Sequence record: MT446420.1
From: Escherichia virus TH54
Strand: one strand, 5' to 3'
DNA: 64,000 bases
The position numbers were made by a program, and so were the translations under genes. This document shows, in pieces, positions 4,232 to 52,344 of this stretch (the first letter of the stretch is position 1; every line of letters starts with the position of its first letter). A model generated the notes under the pieces. It had not been told where the DNA came from. It saw only the letters and a list, made by a program, of their open reading frames with translations, and searched no databases.

Positions 4232-4984
4232 ATGGCCAATATCGTAAGATGCGAAATGCCAGACGGAGTTCATCGTTTCAAACCGTTTACAGTCGCTGAT
4301 TACCGTGATTTACTGCTTGTGCGAAACGACATGAACAACAAACCCGTCGAAGAACAAAAACAATTATTAGACGAACTGTTGGAAGATTATTTTGGAGAGT
4401 ATCCGAAAGCATGGAGGCCATACATATTCTTGAAGGTATTCACTTCCTCTATCGGTAAGACAAAAGTCCCGGTAGCGTTCGAATGTCAAAAATGTAAAAA
4501 GACAAAGCAGACTTTGTTTAATATGAGCCAAGGCCCATTGACAAATCCAACAATGGAAACCGCGGGGATAAAAATACAATTTAAGTTCCCCGAAGTGGAA
4601 TATAAAGATAAGTCGGAGCTTGTTCTAAACACCATCCAGACTGTCGAAGACTCAGAACAAAAATACAATTGGGAAGACCTTCCTGAAGAAACGAAGATGC
4701 AGGTTATTGACGCAATTGATATAGAGAGTCTCGAAGAGCTCCTTAAGAAAATGCATTCAGTTTATATTCCATTTACATATGGTTGCTGCGAAAAACACAA
4801 AACCGAATACACAGACCTGCTTGACGTCTTTAAGCTTATCCTTAACCCGGATGAAGTCTTTGTATTTTACCAAATTAACCACTTGCTGGTAAAGAACCAA
4901 TATTCGCTGGATAGCATCATGCACATGATTCCTATCGAACGAGGTATTGCTTTATCGTTAGTTGAAAAGGACTTGAAGAAATGA
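4232..4984 (+). CDS. 51: baseplate hub assembly protein gp51
   Basis: 250 aa; position and length as T4 gp51 (249 aa); ATGA overlap with gene 27 start. Confidence 0.85.
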
Positions 4985-10739: not shown

Positions 10740-10805
10740 TTTGTTTTCCTCATGTGCAATTGATATGAACATTGTATCGCACTTCCTTGTGCTTGTAAAC
10801 CCCCC

Positions 10806-17374: not shown

Positions 17375-17414
17375 GGTACAGGTCTATAATATCATAACCT
17401 GTACCAAAGTAAAC
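17375..17414 (-). promoter_or_regulatory. early sigma70-type promoter within a perfect 8-bp inverted repeat (PeSL-like)
   Basis: Minus strand GTTTAC-N17-TATTAT; -10 lies in the loop of GGTACAGG...CCTGTACC. Confidence 0.55.
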
Positions 17415-17418
17415 TGTT

Positions 17419-17787
17419 TTATGCGACTTTAATCCAATTATCTAAATTTAATTCACCCTTAGCTTTCATTTTTTCAATCAAATCATCAGCAGTATTGCGA
17501 CCATTTTGATACCATGTAACATCTTCAGAATAACCAGTTTCTTCATCTTCATAGGTCTTACAACGAATCTTACCGGTTATGATAGTTTTCAGTTCGTAGG
17601 TATCACCAGTAAAAAAGTTTGTTACCATAATTTTCCAAGAGAAGTCATCAGAAGGACCTTCAGGAGTCATGCAACCAACAAATTCAAACTGTTCTTTATA
17701 CAAGTGCCATTGCATCTCTTTAGTTTCAATGGCTTTGTAACCGTCGTGGTCTTTACCTTTGATGTATGAGTTAAGATTGATTTTCAT
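17419..17787 (-). CDS. hypothetical protein
   Basis: 122 aa; GGAGA SD; preceded by a conserved leader repeat. Confidence 0.6.
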   Translation of the reverse strand: MKINLNSYIKGKDHDGYKAIETKEMQWHLYKEQFEFVGCMTPEGPSDDFSWKIMVTNFFTGDTYELKTIITGKIRCKTYEDEETGYSEDVTWYQNGRNTADDLIEKMKAKGELNLDNWIKVA

Positions 17788-17810
17788 TTTATTCTCCAGT
17801 GTTTTATTGT

Positions 17811-17834: not shown

Positions 17835-17869
17835 CACTGGGCAAATCCTGTTGTACACCTTTTATGGAA

Positions 17870-20941: not shown

Positions 20942-21183
20942 TGAATATACACTCGCTGCGCTTCAACCAGACCATCAGAACCCAATTTCAGTTGGGTCAA
21001 CTGGTCACCACCTTTTAGGGTAATTTTCGGATTAATGACAATCATAAAACTGCGTGCAGATTCCTGAATAACTTGCAAAGTCGCAGCAGGGAATCGCTGC
21101 GATACTCGGTTAATCATCTCTTGAGCAAATGACTTCACTTTTTCGTGGAACTCTTCAACAGTAATTGGGGTTTCACTAAGCAT
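20938..21183 (-). CDS. hypothetical protein
   Basis: 81 aa ORF with 4-nt overlaps to both neighbours. Confidence 0.5.
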   Translation of the reverse strand: MLSETPITVEEFHEKVKSFAQEMINRVSQRFPAATLQVIQESARSFMIVINPKITLKGGDQLTQLKLGSDGLVEAQRVYIQ

Positions 21184-21725
21184 CAGATTGTCTCCTGTTT
21201 TACTTGTTTAACGATAGAAGCTTTTGTGATATCACCTTTGATAATATAACAATCTTCTGCAGTACCACGGTTTAACAGGCGTTCTGCTTCGTCTTCTGCA
21301 TATTCTTTTGACACATGACGAGAGTTAATCTCAATCTTGCCATTTTTAACCACAAGCAATTTCCAAACTGATGCAAGTTTCACTGGCACAGGTTCAACTG
21401 CTGGCTTAACACCAACTTCTGCCCGGATGAAATAATCAAATTCATCAGACAATGGACCAGCAGAAACAAACATTGCTCCATGATGCCTGTTCTGTGTGCC
21501 AGATATTTTTGCCAAATCCACAAAATCATTTTCATCAATCAAACGTATCTCACAAACTTTTCTTCCACCGCTCGCGGTATCAGGTACAATTTTCACTTCA
21601 AACGGAGTCATACCGATGTATTTGGCAATTTGGTAATTAGCTGCCCAGCCTCCGGCAATAAACTGTTTTTTGGCATTTTCAGATGCGAACTTGTAAAACT
21701 TGCCTTCTTCAAAGAAATTACTCAT
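21183..21725 (-). CDS. hypothetical protein, member of a small paralogous family (GKFY...AKKQFIAG)
   Basis: 180 aa; N-terminal GKFYKFASENAKKQFIAGGW resembles the N-terminus of the 34031-34402 product; early promoter upstream. Confidence 0.6.
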   Translation of the reverse strand: MSNFFEEGKFYKFASENAKKQFIAGGWAANYQIAKYIGMTPFEVKIVPDTASGGRKVCEIRLIDENDFVDLAKISGTQNRHHGAMFVSAGPLSDEFDYFIRAEVGVKPAVEPVPVKLASVWKLLVVKNGKIEINSRHVSKEYAEDEAERLLNRGTAEDCYIIKGDITKASIVKQVKQETI

Positions 21726-21785
21726 TTTGTTTTCCTCATGTGTTGATGAAATTCATTATACACCATCCGTGGTGAAAGTAAACAC

Positions 21786-22352: not shown

Positions 22353-22542
22353 AATGTTCTTCCAAGAAGGCCAAGAGTTCTGGAGCGGATTTAAAGATAC
22401 CGCCATCGACCTTGTCTTCATCTTTATAGTCCATTACATCCAGACCAATACGTCCATCTGTTAAAGGCCATACGCTGAAAAAGTATTCGTAACGTTTTTC
22501 AATTTCTTCGATTGTACGAAAAATCTTTTCGATATTATTCAT
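22345..22542 (-). CDS. hypothetical protein
   Basis: 65 aa ORF. Confidence 0.5.
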   Translation of the reverse strand: MNNIEKIFRTIEEIEKRYEYFFSVWPLTDGRIGLDVMDYKDEDKVDGGIFKSAPELLAFLEEHYV

Positions 22543-22731
22543 AGGTTTTCCATGGTAATGGGATTTTAGTTTGCTTTACTGTTAATTCAATACCCGGGTT
22601 CTTGGCTTTTAATTTAAGGCATTCTTCCCAGGCTTTAGATTGACTAGTGAATACACAGAACTGCCCATTGTTAGTTCCAACTAAACCGCCGTCCACGTGA
22701 ACAACGGCCCAGGTTTCATGATGCCAGGCCA

Positions 22732-22732
<1 letters not shown>
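22535..22732 (-). CDS. hypothetical protein
   Basis: Track ORF 22535-22762; internal ATG 22732 abuts the pseT stop. Confidence 0.45.
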
Positions 22733-23950
<1,218 letters not shown>

Positions 23951-24600: not shown

Positions 24601-24891
24601 TCATTTGCAACGCTCCTCTTTTAGTTCAGAACGATAATAACATAACATACCTTTTTGGTCATGTACATACCTTTTTACATCGTTCAGCCAGATTCTAAAT
24701 TCTTGCGATGCTTCAAAAGGCATACCAACCCAGGCCTGACCATCAATTACCTTAACTTCCCATTGCTGCTTATAATCAGTCAATGCAACAGGCCAATTAG
24801 GATGAACTTGGATTGTGGGCTCCACAACGGGCTTCTGGGCGCATGAAACGAGTCCAATAGCCAAACATACTGCCATGATAGATTTCATCAT
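24601..24891 (-). CDS. o-spanin (outer-membrane lipoprotein, Rz1-like)
   Basis: N-terminal signal peptide with lipobox LVSC (MKSIMAVCLAIGLVSCAQ); 96 aa; 4-nt overlap with the upstream i-spanin. Confidence 0.7.
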   Translation of the reverse strand: MMKSIMAVCLAIGLVSCAQKPVVEPTIQVHPNWPVALTDYKQQWEVKVIDGQAWVGMPFEASQEFRIWLNDVKRYVHDQKGMLCYYRSELKEERCK

Positions 24892-25241
24892 TTGGTGAGC
24901 TCCTGGAAGTCCTGAGCAAACTTATCAAAGGACTGATTAATCTGTTTTTCAACTAATTTAGGCTTCGCTGCCACAACCTTAGTACGTTTTGCATCCGCAC
25001 GGAGTTTATCATTTTCCTTCTGCAGAAGTTCAACATATTCCTGACGCTCCTGGTCAAGGAGATTAATTTGATTAATCTGGTCTTTTACTGATTGCAGATT
25101 TTTCGCATTATCTTCTGCAACTTTGGTGACTTCCGCCACCGCTGTCTTGAGATTATCTACTTTTGCTTTTAGATAGAAACCACTACCAGCAGTTACTACC
25201 AGGGCTAGCATAAGCCCTGCGGTGAGATTACTTATTTGCAT
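24888..25241 (-). CDS. i-spanin (inner-membrane, Rz-like)
   Basis: N-terminal transmembrane helix followed by coiled-coil-like periplasmic domain; 117 aa; paired with the o-spanin. Confidence 0.7.
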   Translation of the reverse strand: MQISNLTAGLMLALVVTAGSGFYLKAKVDNLKTAVAEVTKVAEDNAKNLQSVKDQINQINLLDQERQEYVELLQKENDKLRADAKRTKVVAAKPKLVEKQINQSFDKFAQDFQELTK

Positions 25242-33187: not shown

Positions 33188-33525
33188 TTTAATTCCTTAA
33201 CTGTCTTTTTAATGGCAGTAAAATCTTTACGAATATCGAGAACCAATTTGTAAAGATGTTTAATTGTATCTGTATCAAAATATGATACAGCGCAACGTGA
33301 TTGGCGAATATCTTCTAATGAATATTTGCTTTCACTTGTACCATATCCAATGATACCACTAATGCACTTGTCATTAAGCGTATATTTCTGTGGACCATCA
33401 ATATTATTTTTAGGATAGATGTAAAGGCTCCAATCAAATTTTTGTTCAAGCGTATTAACCTTAACTTCAAGAATCAGTTCAGGATGTGCATCATCTTTAG
33501 CAAAACAAGTGTATTCAGTAAGCAT
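33184..33525 (-). CDS. hypothetical protein
   Basis: 113 aa ORF. Confidence 0.55.
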
Positions 33526-33708
33526 TATATTTTCCTCAAATATTTTTTAACCATGTAATATTGAAATTCAAACATTCTGGAATCAATTACCCAAATCTGA
33601 CGTCTAGAACACTCATTCAAACGCACCGCAGAACATCCAGAGGAAAGGAATGAATACTGTTCCTTTTCTGTATCAGAAAGGCATGTTCTTAAAAAGCGGA
33701 AAAATAAA

Positions 33709-33957
33709 TCATGCATTTTTATTTGCCTTAGCAACTTTCCAGTCAGCTTTAAATTGGTCAACGTCAGAGTGATGAATCCAGAAACCAGATGAGCTGCCAT
33801 CTTCATAAAGAGGACAACCATCGCACTCATCTTTCCAACCCATCGCGCATAAAGTTTCTTCGGCTTTTTCCAGAGCTTCTGGATTGTTACCCTGGATTGT
33901 AAAGTACCATTTGCCTTTAACTTCTGAATCTTTGATGCTCTCACGTTGTAATTTCAT
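33709..33957 (-). CDS. hypothetical Cys-containing small protein
   Basis: 82 aa; GGAGAATAAA SD and conserved leader repeat upstream; CAMGWKDECDGCP motif. Confidence 0.55.
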   Translation of the reverse strand: MKLQRESIKDSEVKGKWYFTIQGNNPEALEKAEETLCAMGWKDECDGCPLYEDGSSSGFWIHHSDVDQFKADWKVAKANKNA

Positions 33958-34030: not shown

Positions 34031-34402
34031 TTACTGAATATCAAAAGTTGCTTTAATCAGTGCAATGACTTCCGCCGCATTTTTATGATTTACCTGCACA
34101 TAAATGGTTTGGGTATCAACAGCAGGAGCATCGCCATCAACTTCCAGGAAGTGGCAGAATTCCCATTCACCAAGTTCAAAGTACTCATCATCATCACCCA
34201 TACTATTCAGGATGGTGCCATCTTTCATTTTAACTTTTTCAACAAAATAATCACCTTCAATATAACACATATCCAGGACTTTGAAGGAATTGCCATGTTG
34301 TTCCATCAACTTGGCTATGCACGAATTATCATCAGGACTACCAGCGATGAATTGTTTTTTAGCAGCAGGGTCTAATACGTAAAATTTACCAGTTTCCATC
34401 AT
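34031..34402 (-). CDS. hypothetical acidic protein, GKFY...AKKQFIAG family
   Basis: 123 aa; paralogous to 34749-35111 (shared GDDDEYFEL...EF block) and N-terminally to 21183-21725. Confidence 0.55.
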   Translation of the reverse strand: MMETGKFYVLDPAAKKQFIAGSPDDNSCIAKLMEQHGNSFKVLDMCYIEGDYFVEKVKMKDGTILNSMGDDDEYFELGEWEFCHFLEVDGDAPAVDTQTIYVQVNHKNAAEVIALIKATFDIQ

Positions 34403-34458
34403 TTTAATTTCCTCATTTCAGTTGGGAACATATTAGCATTTTCCCGTTGGTTTGTATA

Positions 34459-34686
34459 CTAAGCTTCAATCAAATTCATATAAAATTCAGCGTCTTCCGG
34501 GTGCATCCCTTCGCAATATTCATTTTGCATAAAGCGGGTAAGGTCTTCAAGAGGACCTTGAACTTCAATTTGAATACTAAAGAATTGGGTATCTTTAATG
34601 TAAGTCATACACAAAGAAGGATACCGATTACGAATAACTTCGTAAGTGTATTCAAAATCAACGATATCAATATTAACTTTAGCCAT
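34459..34686 (-). CDS. hypothetical protein
   Basis: 75 aa ORF with early promoter upstream. Confidence 0.55.
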
Positions 34687-34710
34687 TTTATTTTCCTCAT
34701 GTAGTTGATA

Positions 34711-34746
34711 GGTCTATAATAACATAATCATAGACCCGTTGTAAAC
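34711..34746 (-). promoter_or_regulatory. early promoter with the -10 inside a 7-bp inverted repeat (PeSL-like)
   Basis: Minus strand GTTTAC-N17-TATTAT; GGTCTAT...ATAGACC flanks the -10. Confidence 0.5.
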
Positions 34747-34748
34747 TG

Positions 34749-35111
34749 CTATTTGAAAGCTTTTTGTAGAAGTTCAATGATTTGGTCGACGTTATTAGCA
34801 TCCACAACACAATTAATAGAAACCGCCCCCGAAGGTGTTTTTGCATAATTGGAGTATTCACGGAAGCAATAAAACTCTTCTTCACTAAGTTCAAAATAAT
34901 CATCACCCATGCCATCATCATTATAGATTGCACCATTAGCACAAATGATTTCGGTTACATAATCATAGCCGTCTGCACTTGATATTGATTTAACTTCAAA
35001 CCAACCGCCATTTTCTTGGATGATGTCGACCATACTAGCATTCGATGAACTAATATCAATGAAAGATTTAATACGATGTGGATTGAACTCATATTTTTTG
35101 CCGATTTCCAT
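34749..35111 (-). CDS. hypothetical acidic protein, paralogue of 34031-34402
   Basis: 120 aa; shared GMGDDYFELSEEEFYCF-type block. Confidence 0.55.
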   Translation of the reverse strand: MEIGKKYEFNPHRIKSFIDISSSNASMVDIIQENGGWFEVKSISSADGYDYVTEIICANGAIYNDDGMGDDYFELSEEEFYCFREYSNYAKTPSGAVSINCVVDANNVDQIIELLQKAFK

Positions 35112-35195
35112 TTTTATTTCCTCAGTTGTTATCAGTAGTTGATGGAATCATTATGCCTTAGCTCAAAGGACTTGTACACTACTTTTTGAAAATAA

Positions 35196-35220
35196 AAAAG
35201 GGACCCGAAGGTCCCCTATA
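35196..35220 (-). terminator. hairpin terminator after gene 32 (GGGACC-CGAA-GGTCCC)
   Basis: Perfect stem with CGAA loop followed by T-run on the minus strand immediately after the gene 32 stop. Confidence 0.7.
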
Positions 35221-52306: not shown

Positions 52307-52344
52307 CATCGGGTCAAGGGACTTGTACACTACTTTTTAAAATA

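Follow-up and report, generated by a model that had tools for sequence, protein, structure and literature searches.

Three dispersed early genes of a T-even phage probably belong to an ancient GoF/Frd.2 superfamily of small phage proteins

The DNA analysed here (the window) is a stretch of 64,000 nucleotides from Escherichia virus TH54 (MT446420.1), and it carries three genes, called A, B and C below, that an earlier note had grouped into a dispersed, phage-specific family of small acidic proteins. The three open reading frames (ORFs), all on the minus strand and encoding 180, 123 and 120 amino acids, respectively, are present as that note described them, and they do fall into two islands, A into the cd-pseT region and B and C into the frd-32 region. 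Both regions exhibit 94-98% nucleotide identity to SP18, VR20, CJ20 and MN01, and the window comes from a Gaprivervirus-like T-even phage. The genes and the domains of A are:

21183-21725, minus strand: gene A, encoding a 180-amino-acid two-domain protein, ortholog of SP18_gp231 and JS98 gp212 and member of phrog_5804; located between cd.3 and cd.2
21411-21725, minus strand: N-terminal domain of A (residues 1-105), a GoF/Frd.2-type β-barrel with the GKFY...AKKQFIAG motif, predicted from homology and AlphaFold2 (AF2)
21186-21374, minus strand: C-terminal domain of A (residues 118-180), predicted as β-β-α-β and unrelated to the C-terminal tail of Frd.2/GoF
34031-34402, minus strand: gene B (frd.2b), encoding a divergent Frd.2 paralog of 123 amino acids, isoelectric point (pI) 4.35; Pfam FRD2 E = 4.7e-31
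34749-35111, minus strand: gene C (frd.2a), encoding the ortholog of T4 Frd.2, 120 amino acids, pI 4.23; Pfam FRD2 E = 1.5e-35

B and C, annotated frd.2b and frd.2a in the SP18 record, both belong to the Pfam family FRD2 (PF03197), their whole-protein scores of 107.8 and 122.2 bits, respectively, lying above the gathering threshold of 29 bits that we took as the limit of membership. C shares 78% amino acid identity with T4 Frd.2 and, like it, adjoins gene 32, whereas B is only 31% identical to the T4 protein. The two are homologous to each other over their full length (31% identity over 120 amino acids, E = 4e-14), with a Smith–Waterman score of 129 that compares with 29 ± 5 for shuffled sequences and was reached by none of 5000 shuffles. 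The block GDD.EYFEL..EF, in which the earlier note had seen a link between them, is real and forms part of this full-length homology; it reads GDDDEYFELGEWEF in one protein and GMGDDYFELSEEEF in the other, the spacing in the pattern being approximate. Both products are acidic early proteins of about 14 kDa in which a short β-α tail follows an N-terminal barrel, just as in T4 Frd.2. The window phage differs from T4 in having two copies, parted by frd.3, in place of a single one downstream of frd.3. Since both types also occur together on single contigs of MN01 and Salmonella phage UTK0003, the duplication that separated B and C must be old, and B is an old Frd.2 paralog kept beside the ortholog in several genera.

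Gene A stands apart in several respects. Its product (20 kDa, pI 6.84, net charge 0) is neutral, so the description 'small acidic' suits B and C only. Its counterpart in the SP18 record, SP18_gp231, is a hypothetical protein encoded between cd.2 and cd.3 and labelled 'similar to JS98 gp212'; the A protein is 96% identical to the SP18 and VR20 orthologs. Orthologs were found in 84 phage records, all Gaprivervirus-like (88-96% identity) or Dhakavirus-like (45-48%), plus one partial match in a Serratia phage. Those from Dhakavirus, 46-48% identical to A, have the same length, with a single full-length copy in each Dhakavirus record found, and the position in JS98 (about 133.6 kb), the only Dhakavirus record compared in this regard, is close to that in SP18 (about 134.0 kb). 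T4 has no ortholog, and in these sequence comparisons A is restricted to the Gaprivervirus and Dhakavirus lineages. Among the 38,880 families of the PHROG database it falls into a family of its own, phrog_5804 (E = 3.7e-70). No Pfam match was obtained at E ≤ 1 for the whole protein or at E ≤ 10 for its separate domains, nor any NCBIfam or PADLOC match. A HMMER scan of 1.84 billion representative sequences with a profile of the A family recovered only nine relatives and no link outside phages; besides members of the same narrow family, the nine include a 101-residue protein consisting of the N-terminal domain only and two proteins whose C-terminal half is a different one, which fits a modular N-terminal domain. 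A BLASTP similarity of the C-terminal domain of A to Frd.3 (E = 0.004) was dismissed, as hhalign gave it a probability of 0.1%.

What ties A to B is an N-terminal motif, GKFY and AKKQFIAG separated by five to six residues, that had already been spotted by the earlier note. BLASTP aligns the two proteins with 17 identities in 32 positions (E = 5e-5), and their Smith–Waterman score of 61 (28.2 ± 4.6 for shuffled sequences, z about 7) was not reached in any of 5000 shuffles. The pair is recovered by phmmer among all 487 ORFs of the window (E = 0.004), a hidden Markov model (HMM) built from A orthologs matches B with E = 2.2e-5, and B in turn matches phrog_5804 with E = 1.5e-5. When the A family (10 sequences) was compared with the Frd.2 family (23 sequences) by hhalign, the match (93% probability, E = 2.6e-7) covered 83 columns, from residues 6-102 of A and 3-88 of B; that is, it spans the whole N-terminal domain, including an ...EF..F.E element at the domain end. 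The pattern conserved in the family is GK[FW]Y..[FL]...A...F....N..IA..IG..PFEV, in which Y11 and N30 alone are invariant from one subfamily to the next, and its best conserved part, GK[FW]Y...A...FI, corresponds to strand β1 and helix α1 of the domain. At the DNA level, the octapeptide AKKQFIAG is encoded in A and B by codons that differ at the third position in six of eight cases, indicating no recent exchange; recent gene conversion between A and frd.2b as the source of the identical octapeptide was rejected on this ground. Searches of the 487 window ORFs with three HMMs detected A, B and C and no further members, and the only marginal candidate, at 24888-25241, turned out to be an Rz-like spanin.

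The similarity extends beyond the three genes. Residues 11-59 of A match phrog_2980, 'goF mRNA metabolism modulator' (E = 8.5e-9), and the Frd.2 family phrog_622 (E = 3e-4), and A is 35% identical to T4 GoF (comC-alpha) over residues 5-44 (BLASTP E = 5e-5; hhalign probability 89%), sharing with it the N-terminal signature K[FW]Y...F[I]...N..IA..G..PF. In the BLASTP alignment D25 of GoF, the site of the suppressor substitution D25Y, stands opposite the last G of FIAG in A, so the noted motif contains the suppressor site. A jackhmmer search started from T4 GoF against 771 ORFs (the window, positions 1-69,000 of SP18 and two T4 loci) collected SP18 GoF, T4 Frd.2, B, C, the short SP18 protein gp041 and A, and SP18 GoF itself falls into the Frd.2 family phrog_622 (E = 4.9e-29). 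The earlier note saw only part of the family, to which GoF also belongs, as does a short GoF-like protein encoded at another place in the genome of close relatives. That the family is paralogous and phage-specific holds, every relative found being from T4-like phages; A and C are not directly detectable as relatives.

The family has, indeed, already been described, in the form of Pfam FRD2, the frd.2a/frd.2b annotation, the PHROG clusters and, above all, the work of Kim et al. 2025 (PMC12152347), who defined a GoF/MotB.1/Frd.2 N-terminal-domain family conserved throughout Tevenvirinae. According to these authors, the N-terminal domain is a five-stranded bent antiparallel β-sheet, an SH3/'LSm-like' β-barrel, which a flexible linker connects to C-terminal domains that vary. 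A, B and C have in common with it the N-terminal homology to GoF and Frd.2 in sequence or profile comparisons, the variable C-terminal domain on a flexible linker (in the models of A and B) and the setting in early regions, on the early strand and with early-promoter-like sites upstream. A has no match to PF03197, so it is not an FRD2 member in the Pfam sense; the Pfam model begins at about residue 26, leaving the GKFY...AKKQFIAG motif outside. It further differs from the described members in being neutral rather than acidic and in the greater length of its β-β-α-β C-terminal domain, which is confined to phrog_5804. MotB.1 is tied to A, B and C solely by the published structure comparison, as it was not joined to any of them by the jackhmmer iteration. 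SP18 carries at least six superfamily genes, namely goF, the short goF-like gp041, motB.1, frd.2a, frd.2b and gp231, the ortholog of A. Its gp041 (locus L006, 271-519; 82 amino acids) consists of a GoF-like N-terminal domain alone (phrog_2980, E = 3.6e-20) and is encoded immediately downstream of gene 41, a gene whose mRNA level in T4 is affected by GoF(D25Y). The SP18 MotB.1 protein (locus L005, 6942-7697; 251 amino acids) contains two tandem T4 MotB.1 domains (residues 30-109 and 112-223), and its C-terminal 40 or so residues also match MotB-like PHROGs.

Structure prediction, a further check put forward by the earlier note, gave AF2 models with a mean predicted local distance difference test score (pLDDT) of 77 for A and 88 for B. 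The folds were compared by the order of predicted secondary-structure elements, which in the N-terminal domain is β-α-α-β-β-β-α-β in both proteins. The five strands of B comprise residues 7-10, 39-48, 51-59, 64-66 and 85-88, and A has four strands of at least three residues plus a two-residue bridge. Low-confidence linkers follow (residues 110-117 in A and 92-95 in B), and beyond them the proteins differ, A continuing with β-β-α-β at 121-163 and B with a short segment or strand and one helix at 109-120. A Foldseek search with A against BFVD produced 40 matches with E ≤ 1e-3, all from phages and, where an organism name was given, nearly all from T4-like ones; most are uncharacterised, have two domains and 120-190 residues and occur several to a genome, and GoF of phage VR7 follows at rank 42 (E = 1.1e-3). 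No Hfq/Sm proteins occur in the top 60 of either structure search (with A or B), which makes 'SH3-like barrel' a safer label than 'LSm', and sequence searches of the PDB with the A-family and Frd.2-family profiles returned no solved relative. The first 100 or so residues of A are the same domain as the N-terminal domain of Frd.2 and GoF, predicted to be an SH3-like β-barrel of small size in which an insertion of two helices follows the first strand; a disordered linker leads from it to the C-terminal domain of A. Other nearest known systems are the SH3-like domains of the FeoA/IdeR type and Tudor-like domains binding RNA polymerase (CarD and the C-terminal domains of UvrD/PcrA). As an aside, T4 gp31.1 (locus L004, 2574-2882) bears the RefSeq label 'SH3 beta-barrel fold-containing protein', and its homolog is expected just downstream of cd in the window; gp31.1 has no match to the family HMMs.

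It could be argued that the motif common to A and B is a chance or compositional match, only B and C being related. The pairwise alignment of A and B is, after all, limited to 32 residues, the direct comparison of A with C yielded nothing significant (1147 of 5000 shuffles reached its score), and the octapeptide is not kept in A orthologs, which have AKKQFVSG, AKTKFTGH or SKNKFTSN in place of AKKQFIAG, so its identity in A and B is partly luck. Chance would, however, have to account at once for a shuffle test in which the observed A-B score was never reached, for the profile-profile match along the entire domain, for independent PHROG matches in both directions (A to the goF and Frd.2 families, B to phrog_5804), for an equally strong similarity of A to GoF, for the common order of predicted secondary-structure elements and for a Foldseek search that recovers GoF amid a long run of two-domain relatives from Straboviridae, and we regard it as extremely improbable. 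The alignment statistics that the earlier note had named as its possible refutation came out significant for A and B. What does weigh against placing A in the superfamily, apart from the A-C result, is that past the first 45 or so residues its link to Frd.2 is seen in profiles and predicted structure only, that the model of A is of moderate quality (pLDDT 77, from an alignment of 10 sequences) and that its fourth strand is just the two-residue bridge at 69-70. On balance, we consider it probable that the three genes belong to the GoF/Frd.2 superfamily, a group of small early proteins in T4-like phages that is ancient and not recently mobilised. Set against the main text of Kim et al. (as distinct from their 210-sequence tree), the new element is the assignment of A, i.e. 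of phrog_5804, with its distinct C-terminal domain.

A different question is how the members came to lie where they do. The earlier note stated that each of the genes stands behind its own early promoter cassette and suggested that the family had been spread by recombination mediated by such cassettes. Such a spread would be of the modular type known for PeSL (promoter-early stem-loop) cassettes. A scan of the window for T4-type early promoters found about 16 minus-strand sites, and the upstream cassettes (100 nt) were compared by identity. The features around the three genes are:

21755-21783, minus strand: GTTTAC-17-TATAAT, an early-promoter-like site preceding A and homologous by position to T4 Pe133.3
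34401-34424, minus strand: copy 1 of a ribosome-binding-site (RBS) box, CAACTGAAATGAGGAAATTAAAAT, just before the ATG of frd.2b; one arm of an imperfect direct repeat flanking the frd.3 insertion
34459-34686, minus strand: ortholog of frd.3, 75 amino acids, 72% amino acid identity to T4 Frd.3; lies between frd.2a and frd.2b, given as context and no member of the family
34684-34707, minus strand: copy 2 of the RBS box, CAACTACATGAGGAAAATAAAATG, at the start of frd.3; the second arm of the repeat
34716-34745, minus strand: early-promoter-like site GTTTAC-18-TATTAT, before frd.3 in the window and directly before frd.2b in SP18
35150-35217, minus strand: composite terminator and early promoter (PeSL-type) between gene 32 and frd.2a, with a hairpin at 35217-35198 and GTGTAC-18-CATAAT at 35179-35150
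34459-34686 of the window (minus strand), 1454-1708 of locus L001 and 17576-17803 of locus L004: gene-order differences in frd-32 from the comparison of the window, SP18 and T4

A cassette of its own can be granted to A and C, although it is only upstream of C that a terminator stem-loop is combined with an early promoter, the promoter of A having no upstream hairpin. B is preceded by only a degraded promoter, GTATAC-18-TAATAT, and the good promoter at 34745-34716 precedes frd.3. PeSL shuffling and degraded PeSLs near indels are documented (Arbiol et al. 2010, Comeau et al. 2014; PMC2839356, PMC4122927), and the loci studied here resemble the published cases in the hairpin followed by a TTTACW/GTGTAC...N17-18...TAYWAT promoter between gene 32 and frd.2a, in the degraded copy adjoining the frd.3 indel and in the indels relative to SP18 and T4 that end in conserved promoter/RBS boxes. 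Thus, frd.3 and the degraded promoter are inserted before frd.2b relative to SP18 and bounded by the imperfect RBS-box repeat of about 24 nt, positions 2076-2099 of the SP18 sequence aligning to both 34401-34424 and 34684-34707 of the window. In T4, the interval between cd.3 and cd.2 contains the annotated early promoter Pe133.3 and the same ATGAGGAAAACAAAATG box as the window, followed by AAATGAGGAAAACAAAATG and cd.2; in the window, the homologous promoter and that same box are followed by A, to which cd.2 is coupled by TGATG, so that A is inserted relative to T4 exactly at the ATGAGGAAAACAAAATG RBS-ATG box.

Gene order in the frd-32 region points in the same direction. It is 32-frd.2a-frd.3-frd.2b-frd.1 in the window, 32-frd.2a-frd.2b-gp251-frd.1 in SP18, where frd.3 is absent at this place, and 32-frd.3-frd.2-frd.1 in T4, with frd.3 and frd.2 permuted relative to the window; gp251 is an extra gene of SP18 after frd.2b, and the window has nothing there. 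The frd.1 gene of the window (33709-33957) encodes a protein 71% identical to T4 Frd.1. Next to it lies an ORF of 63 amino acids (33525-33716, minus strand; product beginning MHDLFFRFLRTCLSDTEKEQY), situated within a 188-nt segment (33539-33726) that SP18 lacks; its ATG and the stop codon of frd.1 overlap (ATGCATGA), and none of the T4 proteins compared matches its product. In the other island, SP18 has a homing-endonuclease gene between cd.4 and pseT (locus L002, 3098-3823) that is not found in the window (22535-22762 and about 22700-23700), which instead has, like T4, a cd.5 homolog overlapping the end of pseT.

It is thus tempting to see cassette recombination as the force that dispersed the family, given the early-promoter-like sites near all three genes, the indels and order changes adjoining them and the start of A precisely at a conserved box. 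However, pairwise identity among the A, B and C cassettes amounts to only 38-52% and does not exceed that to about 12 other early promoters, and the closest relative of the C cassette is an unrelated one at 52330 (68% identity); a specific cassette common to the three genes was accordingly rejected. The cassettes of the window are generic to all early genes, with no special relation to the protein family. About ten of them share an extended sequence AAAAAGTAGTGTACAA-N-CATAATGATTCCAT (minus-strand -35 starts at 17858, 24497, 26043, 34024, 35179, 49463, 52330, 54761, 55748 and 56168), their transcribed leaders occurring in two versions, CCATACTGAGTTAC and CCATCAACTACTGA, and a second promoter class with GTTTAC is found at 10800, 17414, 21783, 34745 and 56514. 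Furthermore, T4 Pe133.3 drives cd.2 in the absence of any A gene, which means that A uses the ancestral promoter of that position and not an imported one. The six altered third codon positions in the motif and the divergence of the paralogs, which are at most 31% identical and keep the same positions across several genera, also speak against cassette spread, and nothing sets the family apart from any other gene of the hyperplastic regions. We therefore find dispersal of the family by cassettes unlikely, and the claim as put forward in the earlier note is not supported. Recombination at promoter/RBS boxes, as described for PeSLs, clearly reshuffles genes beside the family; it explains the indels and not specifically the origin of the family.

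Many of the early promoters have an additional property, an inverted repeat of 6-11 bp with the -10 hexamer in the loop, for example TTGGTACAGGT[TATGATATTATAG]ACCTGTACCAA at 17414; in T4 Pe133.3 the repeat is GGTAGAG[..TATTAT..]CTCTACC. It is distinct from the upstream terminator hairpin that defines a PeSL. Such promoters were noted at:

17414-17386, 24497-24468, 34745-34716, 54761-54732 and 56168-56139 of the window, and 4263-4334 of the T4 locus L004: inverted-repeat promoters

We infer that the superfamily is not a recently mobilised cassette. It would rather have grown by ancient duplication, divergence and swapping of C-terminal domains within the early hyperplastic regions, and recombination at conserved early-promoter/RBS boxes may later have moved neighbouring genes around its members.

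The central question then concerns what these proteins do. The barrel may serve these abundant, non-essential early proteins as a binding module for adjusting the RNA metabolism of host or phage, be it mRNA stability or termination, and each paralog would owe a partner of its own to its variable C-terminal domain. Published data on the family come mostly from Kim et al. (PMC12152347), who reported that goF, motB.1 and also frd.2 amber mutants all plate normally, that a reporter mRNA is stabilised by GoF(D25Y) only, wild-type GoF and MotB.1 having no effect, that the mutant lengthens the half-life of this mRNA independently of Hfq, and who also presented goF-rho genetics; rho-related genetics is known for GoF and none for A and Frd.2. 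According to a hypothesis of the same authors, the proteins bind RNA directly, as chaperones of the Sm/LSm (Hfq-like) type; the 'LSm-like' five-stranded bent sheet, the longer mRNA half-life with GoF(D25Y) and the position of D25 inside the conserved motif would lend themselves to this reading. The wild-type proteins are nevertheless without effect on mRNA, and AlphaFold3 gave no confident homomultimers or rings (PMC12152347). The order of elements, β-α-α-β-β-β-α-β, departs from the Sm order of an N-terminal helix followed by strands β1-5, and the Sm fold was not found among the top 60 structural neighbours. Finally, the net charge of Frd.2a (C), Frd.2b (B), T4 Frd.2 and GoF, -11 to -15, is unfavourable for RNA binding, and binding of an RNA-handling protein may be likelier for these acidic members than binding of RNA itself. 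In view of the inactive wild types, the negative charge and the missing Sm neighbours and rings, we favour, if only as a tentative proposal, an adaptor that binds proteins and acts on the RNA metabolism of the host or the phage, and deem an RNA chaperone quite unlikely.

Several facts counsel caution about the adaptor. The mechanism is built on a single gain-of-function mutant, GoF(D25Y), and the argument from charge does not cover A, which is not acidic. Moreover, T4 frd.2 was scored as a fitness gene ('Fit') in a CRISPRi-ART screen, the sole 'Fit' gene of unknown function (PMC11879866), which conflicts with the label 'non-essential' and with a plating efficiency of the frd.2 amber mutant near 1 (PMC12152347); the discrepancy may stem from polarity of the knock-down.

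The practical gain from the assignment of A is small: hypothetical proteins of phrog_5804 can be annotated as proteins with a GoF/Frd.2-type N-terminal domain and a distinct C-terminal domain. Nor does it render the function of the superfamily newly testable, that question being older than the assignment of A. The superfamily as such nonetheless merits experiments, comprising as it does abundant early proteins conserved in T4-like phages, with frd.2 emerging as a fitness gene in one screen.

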